From NCBI GenBank assembly GCA_036172245.1, contig JAYWIR010000030.1, positions 930,001-994,000 on the forward strand: DNA of 64,000 nt. The letters are read 5' to 3'. The DNA is from Raillietiella orientalis (taxonomy: Eukaryota). The notes under the pieces were generated by a model. It was given only the letters and a program-made list of their open reading frames with translations, did no database searches and was not told where the DNA came from. Of this stretch, positions 26,226-63,415 are shown one piece after another. The translations under genes and the position numbers were made by a program. Position 1 is the first letter of the stretch, and every line of letters starts with the position of its first letter.

Positions 26226-26598
26226 CTAAGATATCGGCGGCTTCAGTCTCTTGCCCGTCGATGACACCGACGACCGGGCGGAGGCCGTCTTCTTCAGCTC
26301 CTTGGTGGTCTTGTTGTCCTTGATTCTCTTGATCACGAACCCGATGATCACCAAGACCACCAGGGTGCCCAGGATGGCTCCGACGATGATGGGAATCGTG
26401 TTATCGATGATCTTCTTGTCGAAGTACTTGTCGATGTCGATCACCCAGCCGACTTCGTCCTTCTCCATTTCCCGGATCAACCAGGAATCCAGCGGGGAGA
26501 AGTAGGTGAGGAGGGAGCGGGTGGACAGGCGAGCCTCCCCGGTGAGCATCTCCATCACCCTTGGCCACGGGTCGCGGGATCCAATGCTCAGCCCTTCA
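26226..26598 (-). CDS. ACE: ACE exon 23, end of domain 2, TM helix (26396-26331), cytoplasmic tail, stop
   Basis: Encodes [75 protein letters not shown], then TAG. Confidence 0.93.
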
Positions 26599-29500
26599 CT
26601 GGAACAAAAGATGGCGCAGCTAAGTCCCCGGAAAGCAACCTCGAAGAGACGGTCGAAGACCCGGAGAGCAAAACGCACGTGGCGGCCGACCCGGCTTGGA
26701 CCTCGGAGGCAGCAGAGCGGGGGCAGAGAGCCCTCCGTCGCGGCACCCCGCTCTTGGATACCCCCTCAACCCCGAACGGAAGGAAGCAGCGTCTCTGCAC
26801 GTGTCCTCCGCGCTACTCGCGGGTTGCCCGGGACGTTACCAGAGCGGGATGCCAAGGGGAGCGCGAGCACCCTCGCTGAGCGAAGCAGCGAACTGGACTC
26901 ACGGAAGAAAACAGGGCAGGGAGCATCCCCCGCGGCTCAAGGTGGAAAAACGGGATCTCCAGCATCGCCATGGCCCCGAGGGGAGGGAGGGCACAGGACT
27001 CGCCTGGTGTGGATTTCCCACGTCGGTCGGTTGCCACAGAAACCGGTAAGCAGGATGGGGAAGGTAGGGAGGGAAGACGGAGGCTACCGTTCGAGCGACT
27101 CCTCCGCCTTCTCTCCATTCTCCCTTACTGGTTGCCCGTGGTGACGCGGAGCCACTGGCGCCTTCTTGCAGAGGCGCTCATCCTCACCCCCTTTTAGCTG
27201 GAGATCTTTCCAGCGCCCTGACACCGAGAAGTTGTGCCCTGACGCCGGCCGTCACAGTCACTCCTCCGCTTGCTCCGTTGCTCCGACAACGGCGGGGGCA
27301 GTTCCTGCAGCCTCAATCATGGCTTGCGGCAATGCCGTCGATCGGAAGAGGTGAAAGTGGGTCGCCGTGAGCGTCCCTCTGGTGGTAGCTTCCGCCGACC
27401 CTCCCCGATCCAGGACGGGACACGCGACGAAAGCCAGACCGCCTCCTCGGACCCTCGACCGAGGTCGAGAGGGCGTCTGGGGTCCCCTGCCTCGCCCCTG
27501 AGCGGAAAACCGAAAACCGACGTAGAGGGAACCACGCCCCGAAGGTGCTCCCGCCGCACGAGAGGGTGGCTCCCGGGATTCTGGAGTGCAAGAGATGATG
27601 AGCCTTGAAAGGTCACTTCCCGGCAGGAATCCCCCCTCATCCCAAGAAGATGGGCAGTCCAGGAGCTGAACCGAACCTCTTCCCGCTCCCACCCGAGGAG
27701 AAGAGAGGCAAAGGGGGCGGGGGATAAGTGGTGGGAAATGTTTGCACAAGCCGTCGCTGCGTCCTCGAATCTCTCTGGTCGCGACAACCCAGCAGACTGG
27801 TTGGTCCCACAAAACCGTGTCATCTCTGTCGCCTGACCTCAAGAAACCGGCTCTCAATAATGGAGCTTGTTGGTCTTGCCAGGGGCGTTATACGTGCCAC
27901 TGGTCAGGTTGCAGGCGATGAGGGAGACCCGAGGAGCAGACGGTCAGCTTGCTTACCAGCAGCGCAAGACGTTTCGACTAGGTGATTGGGAATGCTGAGG
28001 GTCGCCAGGTGAGATGTGACGTTCTCCTAGCACGCAGAATGAGTAGAGGGGGAATGCTCTGTCTCCTGAGTCTGACGATAGGGGGTCGTCAAGGAGTGTT
28101 CCTGAGGCTGGGGAGAACGTCACCAAGAAAGACGGGAGGCCAAAGGAAGGAGAGGAAAGGGGAGACTAGTGATCCATGCCTGCGGAGAGTCGAAGCGAGT
28201 GCTGTCCGACACAGGGGATGTCTGGAGCAAAGCGCATCACGTGCCTGTCATTCCTGGAATGACGTACCATGACGGGGATTCCGTCATGGTGGTGATCATG
28301 GCGAGCATCTCCATGAACGGCACCTTGGGGAGCGTCGCAGCCAGGAACCCGTCGCCCCGTCATCCGAGAGATCCAGACGCGGGGATGCGGCTGCTGTCTC
28401 CCGGGGAACCGGTCAAGAGGGGACGCATCTGTTCCAGAAGGGAACGGAAGCGTCCTCGGGAAGAAAGCACTCGCCGTTTCTGCTGTCGGGTGTAAAAGAT
28501 CAAGGCGAAAGACGAGGGCGAGTGCGGTGGGCATCCCCGAGTGCGCGCAGGAAAGGAGCCGCTCGGCACAGAGCTCCACAGCGACTGCTGCTTTCCTAAA
28601 GTTACCTCAGCTTGTGTCCAGCCTCCTTGCTGCTGTACAAGTTGCATCTGTGCAGGGATCCGTTTTTTGTGGGGTCATACTGATGGGCTTCTTTGCAGAG
28701 ACTTTCGAAAAGCTGGAATCCCATGATAATTGAGAAGAACTGCCTAGAGGTCAGAAAACATTACCCTGTTAGCTGGGCAGGCATTCTACCGTCGCTGCAT
28801 TCATCCGTCACCCGTCAGGTCAGTGGGAACGGTATCCGCCAAACACCGCGGAAGGTGCTCGACATCACGGAACCGATTCCACGTCACCGCCTTAAAGCTG
28901 TCGCGTGCATTTGTTCATTCTCTCCGACGAAAGCCTTTCGAATGCCGTGTACGTCATTTTTCCCTGTACACTCCGCACGTTCGTGAATTTCAATGGAGGG
29001 CTGATGTACAACTGCGCATATACAAATGAGAACTAAATATATATAGTCCGGTAAGGACATAGCCGCATTGGCGGCCGTGTAGCTACGGTCTCCGCGAATG
29101 GTACCAAGCGTTGCGGGTTCGAATCCCCATGCGGAGGATCGATGCCGAGAATGGGGGTGCTCCGTTTCGAGTTCCCCCCTCAAGATCACGCTGGTTGGCC
29201 TGTTCGAGTGTGGCGCCGGTGGAAGCTGAGAAACCGGATGTCCCCGTTGGCTGGCCGAGATTGGAAGTTGGGAAGGGAACGTTGATCCTTCGGGGTCCTT
29301 CCAGGAATCAAGGAATCGGTTCCCTTCGATGTCCCTTTCCGGTTGTGAAAATGGGGCCTTCTCTGCCCTCGGAAAGGATCCTCCATAGCCTACCATGGAG
29401 ACGGTTAATACCCCCCTCGGGTGAGGTTGCCTCTCCAGAGTGTAAGAAGCGGATTGCTCCCTTCGGGAAGCGCTCTTCAGAGAGATTTAAAAGCGTCCCT

Positions 29501-32500
29501 TCGGGGTTCTCTTCAGAGGAAACAAAGCAGCGGTTTCCTTGCTGGTTCCTCTGGGAAAGAAATTCCAGGAGCGGATCTCTTTTCCCTCTTGAATTCTTTA
29601 CACACATCCATCTACCTCCTATATATATATATATATATATATATATGTAGGAGATTCCTATAACTGAAATCCTCGTGCCTAAGCGAATGAAGCAGACGGG
29701 AGAGATGACCAAGGCTACTGCATCCTGTTATCTGGGATGACTATTTCGCTCAGGTGAAACTCTTGAGAAACACGTTCCGTGATTCGTATTTATCGTTCAG
29801 AGTTTTTTTTTCTTGTTTTTTTTACCGTAGCGGACGCACTCTGGAGATTTTTGGCGGCAGACCGAAAATCTGATCACCGGGATTTTCGTAGAATCAGGTT
29901 TTCGGTGGATTCCGCAGCCTCGCTTCAGTCCCCATCCCGTTTGCTTTAATTGATAATGTTGCCGCTAGAGTGCACTCGATTGACGACGGGGCCGGCTACG
30001 AGCAGTTTTCGAAGATTCTTCGCTCTTCCGCTGTCCCACAGATCGCCTTACGTCCGTTGCTCCGCATGGTATGAAAGAAAAGACCAATCATCGATCGCCA
30101 ACTGATCCGGGAAACCAAATCTGCCCGTTGTCTTCGAGGGGTTTTCTCATTCGAGACTCTGGGCACGATTCGAGGGAACCGCCACAGTGGAGTGCGTGGC
30201 AGAGCCCCGCCCGATCGGCTTCCAACGACCGCTGCCTAAGCCGGCATCCTGGAGGAAGAGTAACCTCCCCGACGGAGCACTTCAAGAATGAGGAAAAAAA
30301 GACCGACACGACCTTTCCCTTGAAGAACCCAGCAAACCGATCGCTTTCAGGACTTCAGAGAGCCTCCCTCGATCCCCTCAAGTTCTCTCAGGATACTCCT
30401 CTTCGTGCAAAGACAAGCTCTCCGTGCGCGGAGGGGAGGAGCAGAGGTAAGGACGGCACTCGTTTCGGGTTCCGCAAGGCCGAGCGACTCCTTGCAAAGG
30501 AACAGGTTCACCTGAGGCAAGGGATGCCTGCTGCCACGTGATATTCTCCTCCCAAGTCGAAATAGTCGTTGCTCCTGGTAGATGGAGGGATGAATCCCTG
30601 GTTTTCCGCGCTGAATTCACGTCCACCTGAAACTCAATCTCACACGTGGAGGATTCTGGCTTGCCTCAGCTTCCACCACTCGTAGTTCATGTTGTCCGGC
30701 GAGACTGTCTTGTTGAACAGCTTCCACCTCCAAAGGTCCACGCTGTAAGAGAGCGGCAGCAAAGGGATCGTGCGAAGAGCGACCTGCATGAGGAAGTTGA
30801 TCTCGTTTTCGTAGCTCCAGCTGAAGCTGGAGGGAAACAGGTCGATGCTTTTCAGGTAGTCCGGGTTGGCAACAGAGAGGGAGATGGCCCTGCCGACGCT
30901 GTGCTCGAACCCTACAAGCAGAATGCACGCGGTGCTCTCGAAGGACAGTCCCACGCGTCCCCTTGGAAAACGAGGCAATCCCAGCTGCAGGACCGGCAAG
31001 GAATGCGCAACGATGTTGCGGCTCGGGGGGGGGGGGAAGGTAAGGAAGAGCGTCGCGCGGGTGTTCCTGGGCCGGCAGCTTGGATGCCGTCTCTCATGGC
31101 CAAGATCGAAGGCGCTACGAAGGTTCTGGAAAGCCACGGAGAAAAACGTACGGAAGGGAAGGAATCATAGGAGATGGATGGGTTCTCTTCCTCCTTCCCA
31201 TTCCCATTTCTTCTCGAAGGGAGTGAAGGAGGGCGCATCGCGTACCCCACCCACCCGGACACCCGTTGGAATTGTGCACATCCGTCGAAGCGGGAAGCTC
31301 TCCTGACTCAAGCAGAATGCGGGAGGAAAGACTCCGTCGTAAAGCACCAGCACTGACCTCTCGCATTCGGGATATGGCGCCGGGCTGCAGAGAGACCCGC
31401 TGGGAGGTAGAAGAAAGGCGGCCGTCGTGGTGTTGAGAGGCTGCAGATAGCCGCAAGAGTTCTCGAGCGCTTGAGCACTCGAACGGCGAGACGAGAGTGA
31501 AGATGATGTGGTCCGACGTCCAGGATCCTCTAAAGGAATGCCCGCTCCGCTCCCGGAAGTCCCGGAGGCGGATGGGTCTCGCCCGGTCGCGCTTCACCCG
31601 TGGAGAAAATCTCCCTCTGCTGCCAGCGAGATTAGCGGGGTCGTGAAGACTTGAAGTCCGCCTCTGGAACCAGGACGCCGTCTCGTAATTTCTCCGGCAT
31701 CGGGAAAAGCGCTGCTGGAATCTTCAGCAGCGGCTCTCGGGATCTTGTGCGGGAACGCGCTTGATCTTCCATGGAGGCGTCCGTGATCCTTAGCATCACG
31801 TCCTCTCCTATGGAGCATCCTTTGCGATCCGTGTTCGACTTTCCCAGGACCGATTCTCCTCGCTCTTGGCTCTTCAGCAGCGCTTTCGGCTCTGATCTCG
31901 AGACCCAGGGAGCTCTACGATTTGCATTCTCCCCATTCGGTGACGATGTCTTCTTCTGGTCAAGATTGGTGCCCGTTCTTTCCGGGAAACCTAAGGGGAG
32001 CCTCAGCAGGGAAACCGTCAGTCCCTTCAAACATCACCGGACGCCTGTGAAGGGGGGGGGGGGGAAGGGGGGAGAGGGGGGAGGGGAAAGCTGGACAGCA
32101 TGACGTTCCGACTTCTAAGAAGGAAGATGCATCACGAGGGATTTCTGTTTGCTCTTCGCTGTCAGTTCCGCGTGGTTCGAAGTGTCCACGCGATCCAAAG
32201 TGACTCCCCGAAGCAGCGTAGAGTCAGCCGTTTCGCGAAAGCGCTGCGCTGCTGCCACGCTCGAACGCCCGTTTCCTTACCTGGATTGGCCGCCCTGCGG
32301 AACACGGACAAGGAGTCCTTGTACAGGATCTGGTACTGCACGTGACCTATCTCTCTGTGGATCTCCAGGAAGCTGTTCAGGTCAACCTCCCCGCACATCT
32401 GGACTCTACGAAGAGATGTTGCTTAGTTCCCTCTAGCCCTACGCAGCTCTGCCTCCCAAGATGAGGGAGGGAGGCAAGCAGGAGGGATAGAGAAGGGGAC

Positions 32501-35500
32501 TTTGCGCGGCGCACGTGGAAGCACCGCGTGGCAGAACCCTTCCCGACGTCATCAGCGGTGGCAGCCACGCGTCACGCGCCTCGGAGAAAGGACTGCGGGA
32601 GCTTCCGGAGAGCGCTGCACGCGACTGATGGATGGCGCCGTGTATCCCCGAGTTATCCGTAGCGGAGGTAACCCGAGCGGGACCATCCACCCGCCTGGCT
32701 GCTGTTCCCCTGCAGCCTTCAGGCCTTGAAGCACTGTCGCTGCCCGGCGTAGCGGGGCAGCAGCCGACCAACCGGGCGCGGGAGGACCCAAAGTCCTGTC
32801 TTCGCCATCCTCTTCCCGGACTCACCGAAAATCCACACCGTCGGAGAAGTCCCAGGCAGAAGGATAACAGGAGACCACCCTGCCCTGATTCGGCCTCTCC
32901 ACCACGGACATGTCGTAGAAATTCTTTCCTAGGAGAGGCAACCCCAAGCTGACGTAGAAATCCTCGGCCTGTTCCAGTATCTTCCTCATCGTGTAGTTCT
33001 GCAAGAGAAGAGTGCAAAAGCATCCCTCGGGAAGCATAGGAAAAGGAAAAGGAGGAAGAGGAAGAGGAGGAGTAAGGGAGTGAGGCAGGGGAAACGAGAG
33101 GACGTTCAGAAGGGAATGCGCGCGCGACCTCTCGGCTTCCGCGGGTCACCAGACACCGAGCAATCCTTTTTCACCCTTCCCCCACTGAAGAGTGGAGACG
33201 CAGGGGCGCATGGCTCGCGGAGGGAGGTGTTTCCTCCCGTGATGGCGCTTCCAGGGGTCGAGTGAAGTCTCGAGAGAGAAGGTTGACTTCCAGGAGTCTT
33301 CCTCTTCCTCGTCCGTCTCTTTGCAAAGCTCCCGTGGCCTTCTGCGTGAAGGTCGAAGCACACCGCCTTGAGTGAGGGGCGTGAGAGGAAGGGAAAGGGA
33401 ATGGAGGCTGCACGTACTGGGGTCATCCGGCGCTAAGTTTGTCTTCGAGGAGGAAAAGAGGTAGGAAGAAAGGGACTCGTTTCCCGAAAGAGGGAGGGGA
33501 AAGGAAAGGGAGGTTTTCCGGCACGCCAGCGCGCGACAAGGGTGAAGGTAGGATGATGAGGGCGAAGTGCTCGGGGAGGCGCCTGCAATCCCTTGAGGCA
33601 GTTGGAGCTTGCGGGAGGCTTCTCGGCGGCGCTATCCGACGGCTCCTTGGCACCCAGAACCGATCACCCCTTTTCCCCTTTTCTTCCCTCGGCTGCAGAA
33701 GAGATGGTGGCAGCGCGCCAGACGTTCATCGGAATTGGGTAAAACGGCGGGGGAGGAGGAGCTACGATGCCCATGGAGACGCCTCTGTAGCACCTGGCGG
33801 CGGATTCATGGGGGAGGGCGCCGAGGGACCCCTTCCCCCCTTCTCCAGGAGCCATGAAGCGCCTCTGCCCCGATGGATGCGAGTGAGATTGAGCGTTGGT
33901 CCTCTCACATCCCTCCCGCCACCCTTCCCCTCCTCTTCCGCCAGAAGGAGGGCTGGAAAACCTTCAGGAGGGGATAGAGAAAGAGGGCAATCGAGGATGG
34001 TCACATCACTACGCCGAAAGGCACAGCAGTCTCCGAAACTGGCTCCTCGGGCGGCTCTCGGCGGCGGAGACGGTGGTTGGAAGAGGAAGAAGGGAAGAGG
34101 GCGTTGCACGCGCCAAGGGATCGCCCCGGACCGACAAGACCACCCAGGTACCTTCCTCAGGAGGCTGTCCGTGACATCCGCTTCCTGTGCATCGGGAAAG
34201 GGCCGGATTTCCGTGTACCAGCTGCTCCAGTCGCCACCCCACATGCTGCCTGGAAGAGGAGGTCATCAAGCAGAGGCCTCGAGGCCCCGAAAAGGTTCTA
34301 CGAGCCCTACAGGCGCTCGGAAGCACCCAGCCAACAGGACATCCCCCCGCGGACGCCTCGCGCTCGGAGGACTCACCTAGGAGGTGTCCGGGGATTCCTG
34401 ACCTCTTCCTGACCAGTCCGGGGTACCTCTCTCTCAGTCTCCGGCTAAGGTAGGCGTGGAGCCGCTCGTAGAGACCCCGCACCTCGGACCAGAGGTCGCG
34501 TGCGGTCTCGGCAAACCCGTCCCCGTAGATGGACAGCCACATGGACCGCGCATCCGGGAAGTCTGCAACCCAAGCAAAGGTGGTGGGTGGTTGTTGCCTC
34601 GCTCGATTGCCCACCACCACCACCCGAGCGATCCCTGCGTCCGGAGCTGGGAGGGCTGGCACCAACCATTGGCCTTCGCAACGGCGTTCTCCAGCTCGAG
34701 GTACTTTCCGAAGGTCTCCTGCAGTCTGCTTCCCGTGACGTCTCTCCAAACCTTCCAGTAAAAGTGCAGCTGCCTGTAATCCCGTGAACTGGCAATCAGG
34801 TTCTGGATGTCTGGAAGAGAGGAGAGCTCGGGGGGTTGACTCGGAGAAGTACCGGGACGCAAGAGACTGCCGGACCGTTCTCGACGACGTCTCCCTCCTG
34901 TTCTCCTCCTTCGGGGTTCTTCCCGCTACCGGAAACGAACCTCTTCTGCGCTCTCCCCCAGCTTCCGGGACGGTCGGCTCTTCCCCGACCATCCCGAACA
35001 CCGCTGTTCTTCGGCCACCTTCGGGGCATCCCCGGGACGCCATCCGTAGGTGCGTCCCGGGGCATCCTCGCGGTGTGCCCCGTTGGCCCACGAAGCATCC
35101 TGCACCGGTGGCTGAAGTTCCAGGAGCGCGCGACCCTCCCCGTGAATAACGTCACAGAGCCAATCATCTCTAGCCTCCACGGATCTCGGCTCCCTCAAGC
35201 GCTACTGATGTTCGGACACGAGAGAAATTCTGCGGTCTCCATGGAAAACTCAGGATCATCCTGCGGCTGGGCTGCGACCACGGTGGAAGGCCGGGAGCGA
35301 GTCTCCGTGAAACCGCTGACCGAACCTCACTTCTTTCTTCCTTGGAGTGGAGGACAGAAATCGCGGGACCTCCGAATAGGAGCGTGGATCTTGGAGCGTG
35401 GACAAGTCCTTCCTCCCTCCCTCCTTCATTCGTTCCTCAGGTTATGCTCCCCTTCCTTCCTTCCCAGTCCGCTCACCGCCCAAAACTCGGGAAGCCAGGA

Positions 35501-38500
35501 AGGCGCTCCACGCTGATGGCCGGTGGGCGTCTCCTCTGTCGCCCGCCGCAGTCCGTCCTCTCTTCCGTTCCCCCTCGCCGCCTATCATACGTCCTCTGTC
35601 CCCTCACTCCACCCCTGAGAGACGGGATCTTCCTTCTTCGCAGAGCGGATGATGCCTGCCTGCTGTTCCGGCCTTCCTCGGCTCACGGCTGCTGCAGAAG
35701 CCGTTGCCAAGGAGGCGGAGGAGGAGAAGCAGACCCAGGAGAAAGCAAGAGAGAGCCGCTTCCTGAGAAAGTACCAGCTGCAGTCTGAGCTTTCGAGACG
35801 GTTGGGGGGAGAAATTCAGTTCCTCTCCTCCTCCTCCCACCGACCGCCTCATGGACGAGCAGAAGACGCAAGCCTCTCCGGTCGCCTTCAAGCGGGAGGA
35901 GTCCTGCACGCACTCCTGTGGGCGACGCACTCCCACCGAACTGCTGCACCTGCCCGACGGTTAGGGAAATCGGACAGCGCCCTTCCCATCAGTCCGCCAG
36001 CTCGCCAAGCTGGCCGCCTTACCGTCCCTTCTTTCGAGAGCGGAAAGCGTGCCGCCGGCCGTCCAGCACGCGAGTCGCCGGACTTCGGTCTTGAAGCAAC
36101 CCTGGCAGCACTATCGACCCGGACGCGTCTACCGTCTCCCGCCATTGCAAAATCAGTGCTGTCAGTTGTTCCGCTCACACATGTGCCCAATGCACATGAG
36201 ATAATGGAATCCTGATACAGGGTGAGCGACTCAAAAGCGTCCCGCTTCGAGTCCGGCTTCCCATAGTGTGATGTCAGCGTCCGTGATCAGCATGGTTGCC
36301 ATCCATGCGATCCAAAGACACGGGAGAGAGAGAGTGAATCAGAAGCGATGGAAAGTCGAGTGCAGGGCGCGAGGCGAGGTGGGGGAACAAAGGCGTCATT
36401 TTAATTGAAATCAGTTCGCGTGCTACTACGAACTTTCGGGCAGCTTTTGACTGGATGAGCCTATCGTGCTGCAATCAAAGTCAGAAGAGCGAAAATTCAC
36501 TTCGTGGCGGTGAATCGCCGTGTTTTCGAAGGTTCGGGTGAACGAGGTGGAGCCCACATTCAGAGCGCGCGTAGCAATGTGGCCACCCTGCAGCGGCTGC
36601 AATCTGCTCATGAGCTCACCCCCGCACGCAGATCACAGACAGACCCGGAATCCGGACCCAGGTTGCTGCCTATCCTGTCGGGAGCTCTCAAACCAACTCT
36701 GCCAAGAGATCCGAGGCTGTCCTTAGCCAGGGTCATGAAGGAACTCGACACAGTTCACATGGAAGCCTTCTGAGAGAAGCCTCACGAGTGCTCAGATGAG
36801 ACACGACTCTCCACTTCGTTCCCCTGTTCCCGAAGATCACGCGTCCCCTGCATTCCATGTGCACCCTTGTCGTCTCGAAGAGTGTGGTCTTCGCGAGAGG
36901 TGGCCCCACGCTCCGGGAGTCGGAAGGATCAGCTTTCGTTCCCTACGTTTCTTGTTTCCCTACGTTTTTCCTCATTTTTTTGAAATTATTGTTTTTTTTG
37001 GGGGGTGATGGGAGGAGAAAGGGTGGCTTTTTCGGGAAGGGGGGGGGGTCTCAAAGTGCTGAAGAACCGTTCGCCTCCTCAGGGGAAGGGGGGCCGGATC
37101 ACGAAGCTCTTTAATCCTGTCCACGCTACCCGAGGGTGGGTGTGACTCTTCAAGGTAGGGGGAAACCCGGAGGGACCAGCCTGTGGATCCAGGAAGGCTC
37201 CGAAGGGAGAGATCCGTTCCTCTTACGCTTCGTAGCGGAATCTCAAAGGGAACCCTCGTCTTGGTTGTCTCCGAAGGGAACCCCTGGTTTGTGGGGATGC
37301 TCTTCGTTTCTTCTCCGGAGGGAGCCCACGAAGGAACCGATCCTTCTTGCCCCTCTGAAGAGAGCCCCGAAGGGACGCTTTCCTTGATTCCTGGAAAGAC
37401 CCCGAGGAGTCAACTTCCAGTCCCGGCCGGTCAACGAGGGCATCCGGTTTCCCAGCTTCCACTGGTGCCATATCCGAATGGTGCCACATCCCAACCAGCG
37501 TCATCTTGCGGGGGGAATTCGAAACCCACAACGCAACACGCATTCTCGGGGTCGTTCCTCCACGTGGGGATTCGAACCCGTGGCGCTTGATGCGACGCCC
37601 GGAGACCGCAGCCACAGGGACTCCAACGCGGGTCATGTGGCTGAGCTTCACTGAAGGTCAACGAAGGAAAACGCTTCGCTGGTACTTTGCAAGACAGAGG
37701 TAAAGAGGAACTCGGAGCGACAACGACGAAGCTCGCAGAGCTGAGCCTCCCGGAAGGAGCGAAGCTTTTTACCTGGCACCAGCCACAGGCCTTGCTTCCC
37801 CAGGTTGCAGTTCTGCTTCTCGAACGGACACACCCTCGTCTTGCTGTAGGTCGCAACCATCGACGAAACAGTCATGGTGTACTGGAAATGGCCAGAAGAG
37901 ACTTCAAAATTAGAAGAACAAGGAAGAATGACGATGTTGCTTCGGGTTGCGTCGAGTATGATGGTTCTGAGAAGAATCGCTATGCAAAGATTTATCCCGT
38001 GGGTCTTCCTGGATCTCCCACCCAGCGAATTCTGAAGCAGCAGCCAGCGTGCCAGCACCGCGTGCCTAAGAGCCCATTGCCAGCGGTGTTTCCTCCCCTC
38101 CTGCACTCCATCGGTAGGATGAGGACGTCGCTCTTTCCCATTTCGATCCTGCGTCTTCGATAGGATCCGCGATCCCTTCTTGTTCGGGATCGGCGGGATC
38201 ATTCGAGCGCACTGATCTGGGTAGAGAGCGACCTCTTACGCACGTCCTGGGAGCTTCCCAAGCTTGGTCTCGGTGCCACCTCGAAGCCTGTTCCCTCTCC
38301 TGGATAGCCCGTTCCAGGAAGAAGCTTCAGAGCAGGCAGCAATCCGGAGCACTGCCGAGCCGATTCCCAGCGGCACTGTTTCCCGCTCGAATCCTCGGCA
38401 TGAGATCGCGGTCTGTATTCCCCTTCTCTTCCTTCCTCCCCTCTTCCCCTCCCCTACCCACAGCAAGGCAGCCATCCCTGTTCCCTCCAAGCAGATTTCC

Positions 38501-50500: not shown

Positions 50501-53500
50501 AGCACCGGCAGGGAAGGGGGCGGCGCTCCTTGGCCCGCGTTCTTCTTCTACAGCGAAAGAGTGGCAGCGTGTGAAATGTTTGCGCACGTACCCGGTTGCC
50601 GTGGTTACCCTTCCGGATGCTGTCCGCTCATTGTTGCCGGCACTATTGCGCGTGTTCGTAACGACCGTCTCCGTCTCCGTTATTAGCACGGTTGCTACGG
50701 AACGGTTGCGCCGCTGTTTCCGCCACGCGTGCCAGGAAGCAGGAGGAAAGGGTGTCTGCTTCCCTGTCAGCAGTGCAGATCTACCTATCTCCGTTACTAC
50801 GGCCGCTATTTTTACGACTCAGTGTTACCACTTTTGATCGCGGCCCAGCCGGATGATCTGGACAATGCTCTCCCTCCGGAAGAAAGCACCGAAGAACAGC
50901 GGAAAACGCGGAGAAAACAGCAGTTGCAGAAGATTCTCCAGAGCCGATCCGGCAACAGTTTTTGTAATAATCCAAAATGCAAAATAAACTTTCTTGGTAT
51001 TCTGATCGTTCGCGTCGCCATTACTACTGTTCTGCGTTGTGATTAATGTTAATGCCCCTAATCTGCATAGGTGATCACTGTTACTGTTGTTTGCCAATTC
51101 CATTATTATTACTCTTAACTGCTCTAGCGATCTACGCGGTCGCTACCACCAGTGCCCTCTTTATGGTTATCACTATGCTTTCCGCTGCTACTACGACTAC
51201 GCCCGCTCTTCCTACCGCCGCTTCTACTACGAGGAGTCCTTTAGCTGTTTTGCATCAGCTGCTCTTATTACTACCGTTTCCGCTGCTGTTTTCTACTGCC
51301 ACGTCACCGCTGTTGTGTGGCCGCCGTTGTCATTGCGCTTTGCGCCACCGCTGCTGACGTCACTACGAGAGCATTGCTGGGCTTCCCATCGCGACCTGCT
51401 GCAAGTGATCATTGCTGTCATTATGATCGTTTCGTCGCCGCCGCTGCTGTGGCTGCTGACTTTGCTAGTGCCGCTGTTATTCTTACCGGTGCTACTTTTG
51501 CTGTTGCTATGGATGCGGTCGCCCGCGACACCGTTGTCGCTGGCTGGCACCGCTGCCGGCTACCTGCAGCGTCGGCACTGCTCGTCAGGATACGGAGGCG
51601 GCCGTCGCCGCGGGCAACGAGAGTCCTCGCCCGTCTCGCGTCCTCCCTCGATCCCCCGCATCCGATGGACGCGCCAAGGGAGCAGCGGGCGCTTCCCAGG
51701 CATCCGGTGGAGGAGGAGGGGGAGGGGAAGGAAGGGATAATGCAGGATGGATGCCTCCTCAGTGCTCGCCTCCCTCTCCAATTCTCCCCTCCCCTCCCCT
51801 CCTGTCGACTCCTCCTCCTCCCTGCCCTCCCACCTTGCAGCCGCGCCACGGTGTTGGTCAGGTTGACGTATCGTAGGAACTGCCCCCGCAGCCTGGCGCC
51901 GGTGGCGTTCCTCCAGGCGGTCCAGTAATAGGCCAGGGCATCGTAGTCGCGGGAGCTGGATAAGATCCCGTCCAGGTCTGGAAATGGAGGGAAGAGGGGA
52001 AGAAAGCGAAGGCGCGGGGGAGGGGATTTCGAACCTTTGTCCAAGTTGAGGGTGCAGGGCGGCGCGGCGCCCGGGGGGCAGATCTTCGCTTCCGAGTACA
52101 TCTCCAGCATCTCGCTGATGGTCCGGTGAAGCTGAAGGGCGGAAAGGGGGAGGGGAACAGATCGGAGATCACAGAAGGAGTGGGAGGCGCCCACCACCAG
52201 CACCGCCCTCGCGAGACCGCACGAGGAGGCGTGCGCCGGGAGAGCCCGAGCGCTCGGAGGAGGAACGGGCGCGACTCTCTTCCTCCGCTCCGCTCTAAGG
52301 AAACCCATCCGGACGCCAGAGGCCGCTGCGGAGAGTGACCTTCGTGATTTTCCTCAGGTCGCCGGGTGGCAGGTGGCGGAGTCCCCTTCCTGCCACCCGG
52401 CAGGAACCCTGGTGCGGAAAGAGTCATCGGCTACAAAGGTGACGCGCTCGCAAAGCTGGCAGAAAGCGGGACGTCCTTAATTCCCTCGGCTGTACTCCAT
52501 TTCGGCGGCGCTCCTGGTCCGGATCCGGGCGGGGGCGGTGCTGCTTGAGTGTCGCGCAGCACCACCTCGAGAGCCTCGGGCAGCGCCGCTCGCCGCTCGC
52601 TGCCCGCCAGCAAGATCCCCCACAGGATAGGTCGCGTCCCCATTCCCCGTGGTCGTTTTGTGGGTTCGCGCTCTCTCCTCCGCCCCCTTCCTCCCGACGT
52701 GCGCGCAAAAGTACCTCCGCACGGTAGTGGGCCAAGACCCAGCGGCCGAGCGAAGGCCAGTCCCTTCGGCGGTCGCGAAGGGACTCGGGGGACTTTGCTT
52801 GCTGCGCCCATGTGACTCCCGCGCCTTCGGACCCCGGCCAGCCCCCGACCTCTCGTCCCTGCCAGCGGCCCGCAGGCAGGCCCTTCGTTCCCTGTGGACG
52901 GAACGAAGAACGCCTTGTAGAGAGGTCGATCTCTCCTGGGGCAACGCCGCGCCTGTTCCCAGAGGGCCTCAACCGGGATGTGCGGTCCGCAGTCTCATCC
53001 CTGGGAATCGCTCCACCTCTCTCCTTGAAGAGTGGGAAGAGCCGATGGCAGACCCCCCGAGGCTATGAGGTCGCGGCCGCCTTCCCGCCTCGCGTATCCC
53101 TTGCATCCAAGTCCGGCCTACTGGTAGGCTCAAAGGTCGTGAGACGGAGGTCCGGCGAGGTGGCGGCCGGACTTCCGTCGCAGCGAGGCGCGATGACACG
53201 GTCCTCGAGGCCGGCAGCAGCTGCTGAAGCCAAGAGACGGGAGTAACAGGTGTCTTCCGCGCGGACGCGGGACGGACGGGAGTTCCTCCTGCATCCACGC
53301 GAATCGGGGGTCCAGAGAGCTCTTTGGAGGCGCAGGCGTGGAGGCGGTGCCATGGTGGGAGGCGAACCAGATGAGGGCCGTCAAGAGGAAGCCGCGCACC
53401 CCCTGAGGGTTCATACCGAAGAGCCAGAAGTGAGAGTGAGCGCGTCCACTCCTGGAGAAGTATCGCGAAGCTTCGCTATGTGACCCACCGTCGAGCTGGG

Positions 53501-56500
53501 GAAGGGTCGCACGACGGAACTCGACCCCTGCAGCTTCTGCTGAGCAGCCTGTCTTCGCCTCTCGTGTCTCTTTGATCGCAGCTCTAGGTGATGGGGCTCC
53601 TTTTTTTTCTTTGTTTTTAGACTTCTTCCTCAGGGACAAAGTCCATCCTAGCGCTCGAAGGGAGGGCAGTTTGCAGGAGCCCGGCTCGTTCCACTTTCCT
53701 CGTGGTTCCTGAGATCGGTCTCGCAACTGCTGGTCCCAGTTTGAAGTAGTCCGACTTCGAGTGTTTCGGATCCTTCCAGACTCCTGTCCGCGCGGTGTCA
53801 TCGCGCTCAGCAACATCTCCAAACAGGGGGATCCAGCTGCCCGCCACGAAATCCCATGCTCCAAGCCCAGAGCCCGGTTTCATCTGGTTTTCCATCGGGA
53901 TGCTTTGGTACGAAAATGCACAAGAAATTCAAGAGCGCAAGAACTGGGGCCACGTGCTCTCGCCTTTCCCGACGCCTTCGCGCGTCGAGTGAGTCCTTTC
54001 CCCTTCTTGAGATGCGCATTTCGAGCATTTCGACGGGTCCATCAAGGTTTGAGAAGGACACTCCTTGCACAGGTGGTTTGTACGCTCCGGCACATGGAGC
54101 TTCCTCCATGTGCATCCCGTATGTACCTTCGAAGGTTTTCGAAGGTCTACACGTCTTCATGTTGGCAGTTCGAGATGCATGTGAAGGTTTTTCTCCGAGG
54201 CGGTGTGCCTGTGGATGGTCGTCGGCACTGTGCAAGGCCCCCACGATGGGTAGCCGATCATGACGATCACCGGTTCCTCTAAGCTAATCCCGATGAACAG
54301 ATCTCTTCGACGGGGATCACTCCATATAGATCACAGCCGACCTCATCGGAAATCCTTTGGACCATTTCAAAATAAGTCCTGCATTAGAACCAGTCCTGGT
54401 TCCGCGCAATGCAGCAGCAAAGATCCGCAGCTCACGGGATCCCTTCAGCGGCTTCCGGAACGTGCGCCTTACTTCTGGACCATGCGTCCCTCCCTGACAG
54501 AGCGGTCTACAGGTTCCGAGCTCGCTGCTTGCTATTCTTGGAGATGGCGACTCGGAAGACAGCGAAGAACGAGCAGCCGAAACCAAGTCGGGAACAGCGC
54601 GACTTGCGCCGCACGCGCCGAGGGAAGTCCGTTTATCCCGGAGCGGCACCACAGGGACCACGAAGGGGCAACACTCCCTTCCTCCTCCTCCCGTTACGAG
54701 GAAACGCGAGGGGGGAGCGAAGACGAACTTGCAGTCCTCCGGATGCAGAAGGTGGAGAGGGAAAACGCCGCGGACGCGGACGCCCGTCGCGGAATCTCCC
54801 GAAGGCCAGGGTCAAAAGGGAAGCGAGAGAGGGACTCACCTCCTCCTGGTCCTTGTCGCTCAGGACGGACGTGCCCGGCCGCGCGAGCTTCTCGAACTGC
54901 CTCCTCATGGACGCGTCCTGGACCCGCTGCCACTCAGATTTCTGGATCGCCTGCGTCACGACCTTCCTTTGGCGCTCGAACTCCATCGTCGCGTTGATCT
55001 GGAAACGGAGCGCGTGCTCTCATCAATTGTTCCCTGACGCTCTCTCGCCCGTATAAGCCGAGAGCCTCTTTCGCACCCGACGAGGGAAAGAGCACCACGA
55101 CATCTGATCAGCTTGTCGTGGAGTGCGCCCGTATCCCGCTCTGTCCAGGGCAGGGTTTTCCGTGATGTCACATCCGAGGAGGGTGCGCGAGCCCAGGGAC
55201 ACCCCCGGCGTGCTTCCCGTTCCTACTCCCGTCCCCAGCTCTCGACTCAGGCAGCTGCCCTGCTCGCTTGGCTTAGCTGCCTTTCGGCGTTGCCTGGAAC
55301 CAAAGGGACCACTAACCCGAGGCAGCGGCATCGCTGCAAAGGTCGCTGCGGAAACTGCTTCACTCCCCCTCTCCCCTTCCGATCACAGTTTGGAAAGGGA
55401 GCGAGGAAAGAGAGACCCCGGAGTGCGTCCTGCCGGCTGTTGGAGCAGCTTCTCCCACTTTTCTCCCGGAGCTTTTAAGGAGCACGCGCCCTCTCCCCCT
55501 CGTGGCTTCTCTTCTTACTTCCGGAATTTGTCTGAGGGTGGCAGGATAGCTGGCGGGTGACTCGAAGAAGGCATCGTTCCTCCCAACAGAAAACGGGAGG
55601 AGCTGCTCCTCGTGTAAGGAGAGGCTGCCGGAAGCCAGCCCTTTTTTTCTCTCTACCTTTCTGTCTCCTCTCCCCACGCCCCCCATCGGTTTCGAGAGAG
55701 ACTGATTGCTGTTGATCACCTGCCATCCTCCCTCCGGTTCTCAGAAAACTGTTCTCCGGGGTGAGGAAAAGGAGAGCGAGTTGCTCCTCACTCTCAGCGG
55801 AGACCCACGCGAACTCCCTCGCTTCTTCTGCTGGTGTCGAGTCCGTAGGAACTGGGGTCGCTGCGTGTGCCGACTCCGCTCAAGCCGGCCTCGGAGTGCT
55901 TCTTCAGCACTTGCAGGGCGGGCCGAGGAGGGAGCGGTGAACGCACCCCCGATGGCTTTCACAGACGACAGCTTCCTCCGCCTGGATGACCCCCTACGGA
56001 ACGGGCTGACTGGCTTGCCCTCACCGCTAGTTACACGAGCGCACCCTCGATGGGAATTAGGAAGAAGGAGGAGGGGAAGAGAAAGCGCCCATGGGCTTTC
56101 TACAACCTCGCAGATGGCCACTGAGTGTGCTCCTTGAAAGAGCGAGGAGAAAAGTGGGAGAAGCTGCGCCACATGCCCTCGCTGGGTTCTCCAGGATGAC
56201 GAGAGCTCCCCTCTTTGTGTCTCCCTCCTTCTCAAGGCGATGAACACACTGGGTCGTTGCTGCAATTCCTCTCGGGGCACCCCACCAGGCCGGAACTCGG
56301 GCTTGAGGTCCCTCAGGCAGGAGGCAGGACACGCTGCAGGTGTTCACCTTGCTCCCTACGGTACCCTTCATCCTGAGGAGCGCCAGAAATCGCAGAGTGA
56401 AGTCCTTCTCTCCCGCAGAGAAGAACTGATGCAGGTGCTGGGGTCTCCTGATCCGACAAAGTGAGCTACCGTGGAAGAACTCTTGAGCTTCCTTGGTGCC

Positions 56501-59500: not shown

Positions 59501-60143
59501 TCCCGCTAATGGAGCGGCCCCTCATCGGGAGCGGGCAGGAGAAGGGGAGGGAGAAAAAGCAAACTTGCTTGCCGATTGAAGCAGGGACAAAAGCACGGAG
59601 AAGCGGCCGTTTCGATGCCCGATAGGATCCCGCGCGTGCGGGGGAGGATGCTCATCCACCTGCAGGGAGTCTGCGCCATCGTCCGGTAGCCGTTTCCACG
59701 CGACGGGAAGGAGAAGAAGAGCTCTCTCTCTCGCAAGCGCCTCGGCTTCCAGAGCGCTTCCGTCCCGGAAAGGGGGGGAAAGGAATTCCCCCTCCCCCCC
59801 CCGGCTCTCCTCGAAGCTTTCCCGTCTCTTCCCGAAGGGGCCCCTCGGGGGCCATCCCGATCTGCGTCCTGCAGGACCGCCGGCCTGCGCGGCGGAGTGG
59901 GCCGGGAAGCACCGGCCGAGCGCGCGCGCTCGGAGCCCGCCATACCATGTCATTCCTGTTGGCCTCGGTGATGTTGGTCTCGTAGTCCCACCTGGCCTCG
60001 CTCAGCCGGTTGCAGAGCCGCGTCAGCTCCGCATCCGCCTCGTCCAGCAGCCGTTGAAAGCTCGGTGTGTCTTTACGCTCCTGCGCGCGGCCGACTCCGC
60101 AGCACCAGCAGACGGCTAGGACGACACCCACCGCGTTTGCCAT
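26226..60143 (-). CDS. ACE: two-domain, membrane-anchored angiotensin-converting enzyme-like protein (peptidase M2), 23 coding exons, about 1270 aa; N-terminal domain intact, C-terminal domain catalytically degenerate
   Basis: The 23 exons listed individually below sum to 3813 nt with consistent phases. They encode a signal peptide, two complete collinear sets of ACE motifs, a TM helix ([22 protein letters not shown]) and a basic cytoplasmic tail. Confidence 0.92.
28606..28743 (-). CDS. ACE: ACE exon 22 (absent from the ORF track)
   Basis: Manual translation gives [46 protein letters not shown]. Boundaries ctctag and gtaact. Confidence 0.9.
29061..29590 (+). mobile_element. tRNA-headed SINE-like repeat, copy B
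   Basis: A-box-like tggcggccgtgtag, B-box ggttcgaatccc at 29116-29127, and the shared core. Confidence 0.8.
29620..29646. repeat. (TA)n microsatellite
   Basis: Perfect TA run just 3' of SINE-like copy B. Confidence 0.95.
30512..30610 (-). CDS. ACE: ACE exon 21 (absent from the ORF track in this frame)
   Basis: Manual translation gives [34 protein letters not shown]. Boundaries aattcag and gtgaac, 99 nt. Confidence 0.88.
30665..30911 (-). CDS. ACE: ACE exon 20 (GFEHSVGR; ends at a GC donor)
   Basis: Encodes [72 protein letters not shown]. Donor AG|gcaagc. Confidence 0.9.
32281..32405 (-). CDS. ACE: ACE exon 19, degenerate zinc motif HREIGH (32359-32342)
   Basis: Encodes [43 protein letters not shown]. 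125 nt, the same length as exon 8. Confidence 0.93.
32826..32998 (-). CDS. ACE: ACE exon 18 (CYPSAWDF)
   Basis: Encodes [58 protein letters not shown]. Confidence 0.93.
34152..34249 (-). CDS. ACE: ACE exon 17
   Basis: Encodes [33 protein letters not shown]. Confidence 0.92.
34377..34562 (-). CDS. ACE: ACE exon 16
   Basis: Encodes [63 protein letters not shown]. Confidence 0.92.
34667..34810 (-). CDS. ACE: ACE exon 15
   Basis: Encodes [48 protein letters not shown]. 144 nt, the same length as exon 4. Confidence 0.92.
37156..37632 (-). mobile_element. tRNA-headed SINE-like repeat, copy C
   Basis: The reverse complement has gggttcgaatcccc, the shared core and the shared 3' end ggtccctccgggtttcccccta. 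Confidence 0.8.
37773..37881 (-). CDS. ACE: ACE exon 14
   Basis: Encodes [36 protein letters not shown], paralogous to exon 3. Boundaries tttccag and gtaaaa. Confidence 0.88.
39378..39542 (-). CDS. ACE: ACE exon 13
   Basis: Encodes [55 protein letters not shown], paralogous to exon 2. Confidence 0.85.
41071..41201 (-). CDS. ACE: ACE exon 12, start of domain 2
   Basis: Acceptor ttctcccctgttctcctag. Encodes [44 protein letters not shown], paralogous to exon 1 WDYETNIT. Donor gtgagc. Confidence 0.85.
41262..41419 (-). CDS. ACE: ACE exon 11, end of domain 1 (ends at a GC donor)
   Basis: Encodes [53 protein letters not shown]. Donor AG|gcgagt, phase 1. Confidence 0.88.
41482..41604 (-). CDS. 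ACE: ACE exon 10
   Basis: Encodes [42 protein letters not shown]. 123 nt. Confidence 0.95.
41672..42026 (-). CDS. ACE: ACE exon 9, third zinc ligand GFHEAIGD through AKFH..PYIR
   Basis: Encodes [78 protein letters not shown]. Confidence 0.96.
43225..43349 (-). CDS. ACE: ACE exon 8, domain-1 zinc motif HHEMGH (43303-43286)
   Basis: Encodes [43 protein letters not shown]. Confidence 0.96.
43720..44017. mobile_element. hAT (Charlie-like) MITE, 298 bp
   Basis: TIRs cggcgtttcccaaac and gtttgggaaacgctg match at 14 of 15 positions. Perfect 8-bp TSD gtttggag at 43712-43719 and 44018-44025. Confidence 0.88.
44656..44834 (-). CDS. ACE: ACE exon 7
   Basis: Encodes [60 protein letters not shown]. Confidence 0.95.
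46640..47167 (+). mobile_element. SINE-like repeat, copy D (head degraded)
   Basis: Shared core (gctggttgacctattcgggtgcg..ggaaaccgggtgccccgttgactggcc..aatcaaggagtcggttcccttcg) and 3' end ggtccctccgggtatcccctata. Confidence 0.75.
47873..47967 (-). CDS. ACE: ACE exon 6
   Basis: Encodes [32 protein letters not shown]. Boundaries tttcag and gtagga. Confidence 0.93.
49396..49587 (-). CDS. ACE: ACE exon 5 (absent from the ORF track)
   Basis: Manual translation gives [65 protein letters not shown]. Boundaries tag and gtgagt, 192 nt. Confidence 0.93.
50600..51560. repeat. degenerate trinucleotide low-complexity tract (CTG/CCG/CTA/TTA)
   Basis: Runs such as ttactactgtt, gctgctactacgactacg and gccgccgctgctg in ACE intron 4. 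Confidence 0.6.
51834..51977 (-). CDS. ACE: ACE exon 4
   Basis: Encodes [49 protein letters not shown]. 144 nt, GT-AG boundaries. Confidence 0.92.
52035..52131 (-). CDS. ACE: ACE exon 3
   Basis: Acceptor cttcag. Encodes [32 protein letters not shown]. Phase-1 donor gttcga. Confidence 0.88.
54840..54998 (-). CDS. ACE: ACE exon 2
   Basis: Acceptor tttccag. Encodes [43 protein letters not shown]. Donor gtgagt. Confidence 0.88.
55250..57800 (+). mobile_element. probable highly decayed non-LTR retrotransposon (LINE ORF2/RT) remnant in ACE intron 1
   Basis: Degenerate RT-like motifs occur in the expected order across frames: [59 protein letters not shown]. Many stops and frameshifts. Confidence 0.35.
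59946..60143 (-). CDS. ACE: ACE exon 1 (signal peptide [20 protein letters not shown], ...[13 protein letters not shown])
   Basis: Acceptor ctcccag lies 4 nt upstream of the ATG. Contains the ACE N-terminal WxYxTNIT motif. Donor gtatgg, phase 0. Confidence 0.88.
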
Positions 60144-61897: not shown

Positions 61898-62472
61898 TAT
61901 AGGGGGTACCCCGGGTATGGGACCTTCCTTTGGATCCAGGATGGGCTCCGGAGGAATGAGTCCGTTCCTCTCACGCTGGGAAGGAATCCCAAAGAGGGCC
62001 TCTCCCTTTTTCTCCCCGGAGAGGGTGCATTTCTCGTTTCTTCGAAAAAAAAACAGGAAAGGGTACCCTACTGGAATTTCTTCTCCGGAGGGAACCCGCA
62101 CGGGATCCGCTCCCTGTTTCCTCCTCTGAAGAGAACCCCGAAGGGTGCAGTGCGCTTGTTGACACACTTATTGACTCTGCAACCCCCCGAGGGGGGATAT
62201 CAACCAGCTCCACGGTACGCGACGGATGGTCGGATTTACCTGAGGAAAGGGAGAACGGCTCCCTTTTCGCAACCAAAGGGGAGCCCCGAAGGGCACCGGG
62301 ACTCCTTGATTCCTGGAAGTACCTCGAGGGGTTAGCTTCCCATCGCGGCCGGTCAACGAGGGCATCCGGTTTCCGGCTCCCATCAGCCTCACCCGAAGCC
62401 TACAGGCCAACCGGCGTCATCTAGCGGGAGGACTGGAAACCCACGATGCACCACTCGTTCTCGGCGTGGATC
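61898..62472 (-). mobile_element. SINE-like repeat, copy E (5'-truncated)
   Basis: The reverse complement matches the core and the 3' end ggtccc..ccggggtaccccctata. Confidence 0.75.
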
Positions 62473-62512
62473 TTTCATTTTCATCAGATCACTCCGCGTC
62501 GTGTTTTGTAAA

Positions 62513-62534: not shown

Positions 62535-63217
62535 TTACAAAAAAAAAATAGCCGCATAAAATATAAAAATGTCGTTCTTCGTAGTGACTTCACATCACCA
62601 CTACGGAGGGAAATGCCTCGGAGGCGCTGCTCCCCCGACGAGGTCCGCACAGGAGACGTGAGGGAAGGGGTAAACAAAAAAACAAAAACAAAAAACACGA
62701 AAGTTCAGTTTAAAAAAATATCTCGGGGAGTCGGGAAGGAAAGGGAACGGATCTCGGATTTCTTCCTGGCGTCCTCAGGATCCTCTGGAGAATTCTTGTG
62801 TTCCTACTTCCTACTTTTGTTGGCAGAGATGTGGCCATCTTGTCTCCTTTCCCCATAAAGGAGAGGGCGATCAGGATGACATCACGGTTCGACTGAACTC
62901 TTTCGGCACGACTTCCCTCCGCCGCCGCTGTCCCACGAAGGCAGCGCAGAGCTGCCAGGGAAGCTGCGGGGCGGCATCCAGTCGCGCGCTAAGAGGCTTC
63001 GCAACACCTCTCTGTCGCTGTCCACTGAGAGAGGGAGGGCTGCAGCGAAGCATTCCCGGACATCCAGGGGAACAACAATCCAGCAACAGGGGCAGGAAGA
63101 TTTCGCGTTCCCCGCACCTGGCTCAGAACGGGGCCGCACTTCCCCTCGTCCACTGGGGGACTCGTGCGCTGCATGAGAACGCCCAGTGCAGCAGCTGCAA
63201 TGCTGAGTGTTTGCTCT

Positions 63218-63415
63218 CCTTGATTACCGGAAGGATCCCGGAGGATCAACTTCCAATCCCGGCCACTCAACGGGAGCATACGGTTTCCGGCTTCCGCCAG
63301 TGCCGCACCCGAACGGGCCAACCAGCGTTCATCCTGCAGGGGGGACTGGAAACCCCCACGACGCACCCCCATTCTCGGCATCGATCCTTCCCTAGGTGAG
63401 ATTCGAACCCGCGGT
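63218..63415 (-). mobile_element. SINE-like repeat, copy F (5' part only)
   Basis: The reverse complement has B-box gcgggttcgaatctc followed by ggatcgatgccgagaatgggggtgc, near-identical to copy B. Confidence 0.75.

Follow-up and report, generated by a model that had tools for sequence, protein, structure and literature searches.

A 64,000-nucleotide (nt) stretch of the Raillietiella orientalis genome (assembly GCA_036172245.1, contig JAYWIR010000030.1, positions 930,001 to 994,000; hereafter the window, numbered from its first letter) raises the question of whether a minus-strand gene at 60143..26226 encodes one angiotensin-converting enzyme (ACE) chain with two peptidase M2 domains, and whether both of these domains could be catalytic. 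We found that the 23 exons of this gene are spliced in the model into a product of 1270 amino acids (aa), in which domain 1 is predicted to be an active peptidyl-dipeptidase and domain 2 is inactive by motif. The reading that we favour, and consider likely as a whole, is that of one gene for a type I membrane glycoprotein, comprising a signal peptide, an intact M2 domain 1, a very short linker with a Cys (GWGGDC), a dead M2 domain 2, a stalk, a transmembrane (TM) helix and a short tail on the cytoplasmic side, and belonging to an old arthropod family.

Gene structure and domain architecture

We built the exon model by reading every junction, with a Pfam scan of 21 candidate exon open reading frames (ORFs) and tblastn as guides. 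All introns of the model have AG acceptors and 20 out of 22 have GT donors, while GC donors were placed at the other two; the reading frame is open over 1270 codons and the exon phases are consistent. The gene starts at an ATG (60143-60141) and ends at a stop codon (26228-26226), the same ends as in the first-pass annotation of the window, and the two full M2 domains, TM helix and tail described there were all recovered in the spliced product. In particular, this product gave two full matches to a domain hidden Markov model (HMM) built from 41 single-domain homologues: domain 1 (residues 12-607) scored 728 bits over HMM positions 34-612 and domain 2 (residues 611-1198) scored 501 bits over positions 43-612. 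The two domains are 34.6% identical, each contains the three conserved disulfide Cys pairs of the M2 fold, and domain 2 carries seven N-x-S/T sequons between residues 639 and 1128. The N-terminus is hydrophobic and signal-like by inspection, and the TM helix, which begins at residue 1215, is followed by a basic, Ser-rich tail of 32 aa. The last exon showed sub-threshold matches to the TM-segment models PF21222 and PF21314, and its TM segment aligned with those of Penaeus, Oratosquilla and the transcript P0122.

The Pfam Peptidase_M2 profile (PF01401) was matched by 17 out of the 21 exon-bearing ORF translations, in colinear order and running through the profile twice; the four without a match of their own were those with exons 12 and 13 and two around the junction of exons 20 and 21. 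The same two exon series were recovered by tblastn with seven two- or three-domain homologues, which detected no further M2 sequence within the 64-kb window. Exon sizes were parallel between the two halves (144/144, 192/186, 95/98, 179/173 and 125/125 nt in domain 1 and domain 2, respectively); exon 9 (355 nt) is the counterpart of exons 20 and 21 together (247 and 99 nt, with a GC-donor boundary), and the 123-nt exon pairs with one of 138 nt. Such repeated exon sizes are the signature of a duplicated multi-exon unit. The exons and the alternative boundaries considered are as follows.

59946..60143 (minus strand): exon 1; ATG, hydrophobic signal-like N-terminus (signal peptide by inspection), start of M2 domain 1; PF01401 6-45
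54840..54998 (minus strand): exon 2, domain 1; PF01401 43-105; AG/GT flanks
52035..52131 (minus strand): exon 3, domain 1; contains the first disulfide Cys pair; the intron after it is 57 nt long, in frame and stop-free
51834..51977 (minus strand): exon 4, domain 1; 144 nt, equal in size to exon 15
49396..49587 (minus strand): exon 5, domain 1; PF01401 176-247
47873..47967 (minus strand): exon 6, domain 1; NMWAQTW
44656..44834 (minus strand): exon 7, domain 1; CHASA at 44694-44708
43225..43349 (minus strand): exon 8, domain 1; HHEMGH zinc motif at 43286-43303
41672..42026 (minus strand): exon 9, domain 1; GFHEAIGD at 42004-42027, AKFH at 41698-41709, first part of PYIRYF; PF01401 with E=1.2e-46
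41482..41604 (minus strand): exon 10, domain 1; PF01401
41262..41419 (minus strand): exon 11, end of domain 1 (...NECIGWGG); preferred 3' end at the GC donor 41261-41260
after 41241, 41258 and 41270 (minus strand): alternative GT donors of exon 11 from the junction enumeration
41202..41261 (minus strand): intron 11; 60 nt, GC-AG, GCGAGT...CTGAC...pyrimidine tract...TAG; contains the TGA at 41226-41224
41071..41201 (minus strand): exon 12; encodes the Cys of the linker (DC) and the helix that opens domain 2; covered by our own HMM from position 43
39378..39542 (minus strand): exon 13, domain 2; placed by junction reading, no Pfam match alone
37773..37881 (minus strand): exon 14, domain 2; YS...VCPFEKQNC disulfide pair; weakest exon call
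34667..34810 (minus strand): exon 15, domain 2; 144 nt; PF01401
34377..34562 (minus strand): exon 16, domain 2; PF01401
34152..34249 (minus strand): exon 17, domain 2; SMWGGDW, with Gly where the substrate-carboxylate Gln aligns
32826..32998 (minus strand): exon 18, domain 2; CYPSA at 32855-32869; PF01401
32281..32405 (minus strand): exon 19, domain 2; HREIGH at 32342-32359, aligned to HHEMGH of both domains of human somatic ACE (7q3y)
30665..30911 (minus strand): exon 20, domain 2; GFEHSVGR at 30889-30912; preferred 3' end at the GC donor 30664-30663
30512..30610 (minus strand): exon 21, domain 2; GEYH at 30538-30549, first part of PCLRQF
28606..28743 (minus strand): exon 22, domain 2; third disulfide pair
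26226..26598 (minus strand): exon 23; last part of domain 2, followed by the juxtamembrane stalk, a TM helix at about 26331-26396, 32-aa tail, stop; PF01401 529-581

Exon 14 reached an HMM i-Evalue of only 0.68, yet it has the right splice flanks and phases and keeps the conserved Tyr and the Cys pair. Eight out of the ten catalytic motifs named in the first-pass annotation were found as contiguous minus-strand translations; the other two, PYIRYF (exons 9/10) and PCLRQF (exons 21/22), cross exon junctions and are visible in the spliced product only. AKFH had one extra match on the plus strand (47821-47832), which was taken to be chance.

Two features of the introns were also recorded. Intron 3 (51978-52034, minus strand) is 57 nt long, in frame and stop-free, and its retention would add 19 Pro-rich residues to domain 1; the unspliced exon 3/4 ORF showed about 20 surplus residues in the Pfam scan (102 residues against 82 profile positions). 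Intron 21 contains a short dinucleotide microsatellite at about 29600-29650 (minus strand), which is translated within the ORF 29311-29727.

Catalytic residues of the two domains

We compared the motifs of both domains with those of 176 homologous domains, aligned to the HMM of the 41 single-domain relatives, and aligned exons 19-21 by phmmer to the solved structure of human somatic ACE (sACE; 7q3y). Domain 1 was canonical at all five motifs (CHASA, HHEMGH, GFHEAIGD, AKFH and PYIRYF), like nearly all of the 176 domains, and thus has both the HExxH motif and the downstream Glu ligand. Domain 2 was divergent at all five (CYPSA, HREIGH, GFEHSVGR, GEYH and PCLRQF) and lacks this zinc site: Arg stands in for the first zinc His, and His for the Glu that is the third ligand. 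In the alignment with human sACE, this Arg falls where the first zinc His stands and the His where the Glu ligand stands, and Glu and Cys are opposite the Lys and Tyr of AKFH and PY. Among the substrate and transition-state residues, Lys is changed to Glu in GEYH, where the His is kept, and the His and Ala of CHASA and the two Tyr of PYIRYF are replaced. The changed residues of domain 2 are aligned with human H353, A354, K511, Y520 and Y523, whose numbering and functional roles we take to be those of the testis ACE (tACE) structures.

Of the 131 columns with at least 90% conservation in the family, 117 are retained by domain 1 and 94 by domain 2. Among the columns lost from domain 2 are the catalytic and substrate-binding ones, that of the Gln in MWAQ and those of two Arg that are presumably chloride ligands; none of its six Cys is missing, and hardly any of the Trp. 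The complete catalytic set of domain 1 and the changes from His to Arg, from Glu to His and at other substrate residues of domain 2, all proposed in the first-pass annotation, were therefore found again in these two comparisons.

The junction between the domains and the two proposed GC-AG introns

We enumerated the in-frame GT and GC donors after domain 1 against the AG acceptors upstream of exon 12. A GC donor at 41261 (GAG/GCGAGT), combined with an acceptor that has a CTGAC branch point, a long pyrimidine tract and a terminal TAG, gave an intron 11 of 60 nt, within the size class of the other short introns of the gene (54-67 nt). The spliced linker reads ...CIGWGGDCSTD..., and its GWGGDC aligned gap-free with GWGADC, GWGVDC and GWNDDC of the orthologues. 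Three GT alternatives ranked lower. At 39 nt, the first would be the shortest intron of the gene; it has a GTCGCG donor and keeps the linker Cys only with an extra insertion; the 66-nt and 78-nt introns use a downstream CAG acceptor that removes this conserved Cys, and the 78-nt version also removes the Trp of GW.

The second GC-AG intron is intron 20. A 33-nt GT intron (30643-30611) inserts seven residues relative to the family and was replaced by a GC-AG intron of 54 nt (30611-30664, donor GCAAGC), which raised the score to 501.3 bits, compared with 493.8 for the GT model, and restored the family spacing of WWxL, three residues and QG as in human ACE.

Constraint on domain 2

Stop codons occupy 722 out of 30040 codon positions in the introns of the gene (0.024), whereas domain 2 and the tail comprise 662 codons without any stop, which at the intron frequency would have a chance probability of about 1e-7. 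Third codon positions of domain 2 have a GC content (GC3) of 0.799 and those of domain 1 one of 0.798, compared with 0.574 for the GC content of the introns, and splice signals were usable at 12 out of 12 domain-2 exons. The open frame, the codon bias, the splice signals and the kept columns, taken together, point to long-term purifying selection on a folded, translated domain 2, and the sequence argues for a domain that is constrained for its fold while evolving fast. The earlier observation that the 12 domain-2 exons stay open and keep their structural Cys and Trp thus stands (no stop in 662 codons, all six Cys, nearly all Trp).

A word-indexed search with exon 9 of domain 1 gave 3807 matches, with a best identity of 59%; the same kind of search with exon 20 of domain 2 gave 39 candidates, none of them significant. 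When 1.84 billion representatives were scanned with exon 20 by HMMER, 618 matches passed E<=1e-3, none of them above about 54% identity. The ESM Atlas returned generic ACE clusters only. In the phylogenetic trees, the branch of domain 2 is the longest, at 2.0-2.5 substitutions per site where the median is 0.5-0.6, a length that fits relaxed or redirected constraint after catalytic loss.

Phylogenetic position of the two domains

The per-domain phylogeny proposed in the first-pass annotation was run with arthropod two-domain proteins, namely the 'angiotensin-converting enzyme-like' proteins of Penaeus indicus and P. chinensis (P0063, P0064), those of Oratosquilla oratoria (P0066) and Allacma fusca (P0062), the 'ACE-like 3' of Homarus americanus (KAG7158224.1, P0125) and the Logan transcripts P0061 and P0122. 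In a tree of 60 domains, both domains of the window fell inside the arthropod clade (support 99) and, within it, in a clade of 14 rows (support 96) together with the two-domain proteins of Penaeus, Oratosquilla and Allacma, Darwinula and further transcripts; the same clade was supported at 94 in two smaller trees. In the smaller trees, domain 2 of the window was placed among the second domains of Penaeus, Oratosquilla, Homarus, Allacma and P0061 (support 95 and 96), and the two halves of the Homarus protein grouped with the malacostracan first and second domains, respectively (support 100 each). Forcing the two domains of the window to be sisters cost 8.9 log-likelihood units (p-AU 0.027 in the approximately unbiased, AU, test). 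The N and C domains of the vertebrate enzymes formed clades of their own, apart from the arthropod clade, so the arthropod and vertebrate duplications were independent.

By this placement the gene is a member of an old arthropod family of two-domain, TM-anchored proteins, whose duplication is older than the split of malacostracans, springtails and this lineage; the membrane-anchored architecture with two domains thus goes back to the ancestor of a broad group of arthropods.

Alternative readings of the locus

Several observations weigh against a continuous chain with a dead, selectively maintained second half. Directly after domain 1 lies an in-frame TGA (41226-41224), with exon 12 starting 25 nt on in the same frame, and if unspliced it would close an intact soluble single-domain ACE. 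Two of the 22 introns in the model are of the GC-AG type; such introns usually make up about 1% of those in animals, and this gene is thus well above the usual share. The continuity of the chain comes from the logic of the gene model and from the orthologue alignment, and purifying selection was deduced from one sequence rather than from the ratio of nonsynonymous to synonymous rates; among the libraries searched, no orthologue was close enough for codon-level tests (59% for exon 9 and at most 54% for exon 20). Domain 2 keeps the Glu and the second His of HExxH, has a His at the site of the Glu ligand and retains the residues aligned with H513 and R522, and may, judged from these side chains, have some metal binding left. 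In the trees, the position of domain 1 relative to the other first domains was a polytomy in three trees, the long branch and deviant composition of domain 2 make its placement less secure than the support values suggest, and the AU test is modestly significant for a group that was named after the tree had been seen. The joining of both domains in one polypeptide is the least secure step, and we rate it as probable.

If the gene product ended at the TGA, it would be a soluble single-domain ACE, and the exons of domain 2 would be a separate transcription unit or untranslated. The TGA lies 18 codons past the M2 profile match, such a product would resemble the soluble insect ANCE, and every candidate donor at the junction is non-consensus, being either GC or a weak GT (GTCGCG, GTCGAC, GTGGGG); the internal promoter of vertebrate testis ACE is a model for a separate domain 2 unit, which would need an undetected signal-peptide exon. 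We consider this outcome improbable, since exon 12 has neither a start codon of its own nor a signal-peptide context, a strong branch point, pyrimidine tract and AG stand directly upstream of it, GWGGDC has counterparts in orthologues that consist of one chain, in some cases on transcript-sized contigs (P0061, 4025 nt), and domain 2, TM helix and tail are conserved as coding sequence. The same junction could also yield two isoforms, a secreted one-domain enzyme when the 60-nt intron is retained and a membrane-anchored two-domain form when it is removed or when the UGA-C is read through. The length of the intron is a multiple of three, exons 11 and 12 share a frame with only a single TGA, followed by C, between them, and GC donors should be weaker than GT donors. 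This is an argument from sequence logic, though, in which the shared frame has a chance of one in three, and a polyadenylation-like hexamer was not found between 41223 and 39543; such a hexamer was absent both after the internal TGA and in the 1 kb past the final stop, and is uninformative as a test. We regard the production of both isoforms as unlikely; if they exist, the in-frame intron would be a built-in switch between a soluble active ACE and the same enzyme tethered on a dead ACE-fold pedestal, and the pedestal may have taken on a new function in binding or regulation (trapping peptides, for example, or dimerising, or controlling shedding).

Two further explanations concern domain 2 itself. 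Its exceptional branch length, the loss of all five catalytic motifs and the TGA upstream would suit a neutrally decaying remnant, the dying half of a gene that once had two domains; the stop-free frame, the GC3 of 0.80 against 0.57 in the introns, the usable splice sites, the retention of six out of six Cys and 94 out of 131 invariant columns, and a TM helix and tail that are still alignable with Penaeus and Oratosquilla make such decay very improbable. Just as improbable in our view is a domain 2 that is still a hydrolase with a rearranged metal site, in which the Glu of HExxH and the second His would combine with the newly gained His of GFEH and the Glu next to it. E955, H958, E981/H982 and H1085 are present (in the numbering of a model two residues shorter than the final one) and the swap from HE to EH leaves His and Glu side by side. 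On the other hand, the residues aligned with H353, K511, Y520 and Y523, the carboxylate-binding Gln and the Arg residues taken as chloride ligands are all replaced, and the combination is absent from the active members among the 176 domains.

Proposed working and significance

On the favoured reading of one two-domain chain, the two halves would be joined by splicing out the 60-nt GC-AG intron that carries the in-frame TGA, and domain 1 would act as a peptidyl-dipeptidase on extracellular peptides. In this lineage, two zinc ligands of domain 2 (the first His and the Glu) are gone, as are most of its substrate and transition-state residues, and the domain would no longer cleave peptides. Folded, glycosylated and disulfide-bonded, it could serve as a non-catalytic pedestal that keeps the active domain 1 at a distance from the membrane; by analogy with the inter-domain effects in vertebrate sACE, it may also bind peptides without cleaving them, or modulate domain 1 or shedding.

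At its present status of a sequence-level annotation, the locus marks ACE-like proteins with two domains and a membrane anchor as an old gene family of arthropods rather than a mosquito oddity. It would also offer a natural tandem ACE with one live and one dead domain, as a tool for asking what a second domain contributes beyond catalysis (spacing, cooperativity, control of shedding), which is a question for vertebrate sACE as well.

Neighbouring gene and dispersed repeats

The window is GC-rich (0.46-0.67 in 2-kb bins). A convergent plus-strand gene at about 9.1-23.4 kb (9090-23403) combines CLIP_SPH_mas domains with a trypsin-like domain, and has GDGGGP in place of GDSGGP at the catalytic Ser motif. 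By these motifs it is a masquerade-type clip-domain serine-protease homologue and also a pseudoenzyme, and its presence speaks for an arthropod origin of the DNA. A search with its CLIP-domain ORF gave two matches, the nearest named one being from the aphid Cinara cedri. Finally, we found copies of a dispersed repeat of about 90-240 bp with 75-87% identity, several of them inside introns of the ACE gene, which look like a SINE- or MITE-like element (short interspersed nuclear element or miniature inverted-repeat transposable element).

9090-9584 and 10518-11876 (plus strand): CLIP_SPH_mas ORFs, by domain match
13553-13864 (TAAHC kept), 19018-19521 and 22684-23403 (plus strand): trypsin-domain exons, by domain match
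16182-16419, 29113-29520, 37054-37549, 46775-47263, 62281-62476 and 63216-63412 (both orientations): dispersed repeat copies, 75-87% identity

Comparison with known ACE systems

The closest comparison is with the family of Penaeus, Oratosquilla, Homarus and Allacma. These proteins share with that of the window the two tandem M2 domains, the linker GWGxDC at the end of domain 1 and, in the aligned sequences of Penaeus, Oratosquilla and P0122, a TM helix with ..VPI(I/V)VG.. followed by a basic tail; the MWG signature of domain 2 is also common to the window and the other second domains of the family. Overall identity is only 37-40%, and the long Ser/Thr/Pro-rich linkers of the malacostracan proteins are missing from the window protein. 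Domain 2 of the two Penaeus species, Allacma and P0061 keeps HHE(M/L)GH, GFHEAIGD, (A/S)KYH and the aromatics of PY..YF, with small changes in Allacma (PYVAYF) and P0061 (GYIRYF). In Oratosquilla it is changed only at the positions aligned with H353, H513 and D415, with Gln at H353 and H513, and Homarus has degenerate motifs in both domains. Judged by motif, the catalytic site has been lost repeatedly and independently in this family while the fold was kept (in both domains of Homarus and partly in domain 2 of Oratosquilla), and the window holds the only sampled case of an intact domain 1 with a thoroughly stripped domain 2. The earlier view of an enzyme plus pseudoenzyme ectoprotein is thus supported in its anatomy, motif losses and fold conservation; its architecture, however, is not unique and is already represented by crustacean and springtail database proteins, so that what appears new is the species-specific variant.

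Among published arthropod enzymes, AnoACE9 of Anopheles gambiae was the only two-domain ACE that turned up in our literature search of partially available texts. In the available part of its description (Burnham et al. 2005; PMC1325048) it has two ACE domains and a C-terminus that is hydrophobic, cDNA showed it to come from a single gene, and it is reported with both sites intact and a predicted glycosylphosphatidylinositol (GPI) anchor. Compared by that description, the window gene differs in its 23 exons, its TM helix and tail, its dead domain 2 and the low identity of its two domains (34.6%). According to the accessible text of PMC9798321, crustacean ACEs have a single domain and, at 529-666 aa, fall far short of the size of vertebrate ACE. 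Non-catalytic M2 homologues are mentioned in the same part of PMC1325048, namely ANCE-2, -3 and -4 of Drosophila and ACN-1 of C. elegans, and ANCE-3 is needed, according to the available part of PMC10484059, for the secretion of odorant-binding proteins, a role that looks non-proteolytic. Like domain 2, these proteins have an M2 fold without the full catalytic set; by description, however, they are stand-alone and single-domain, whereas in the window the dead fold is fused behind an intact one.

Vertebrate somatic ACE (human, 7q3y) resembles the window protein in being a type I membrane protein, in its tandem pair of M2 domains and in the multi-exon duplicated halves that encode them, and the window exons align with it residue for residue around the zinc site. 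Both of its domains are active, whereas domain 2 of the window is inactive by motif, and in the 60-domain tree the window domains showed no orthology to the halves of the vertebrate duplication. Tandem proteins with degenerate modules were found in phyla other than that of the window, as separate duplications in the tree. The protein P0008 of Lymnaea stagnalis has a dead domain 1 followed by intact domains 2 and 3, so that its dead module is N-terminal and not membrane-proximal as in the window, and the dead module is likewise N-terminal in P0123, a vertebrate-like transcript with HHQMGH in its N-domain. Trichuris trichiura (CDW53617.1) has three degenerate domains and Bulinus truncatus (KAH9499518.1) two. 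On the evidence of these motifs, tandem ACE chains repeatedly tolerate catalytic loss in one module, and the combination of an intact domain 1 with a stripped, membrane-proximal domain 2 is new among the sampled proteins.

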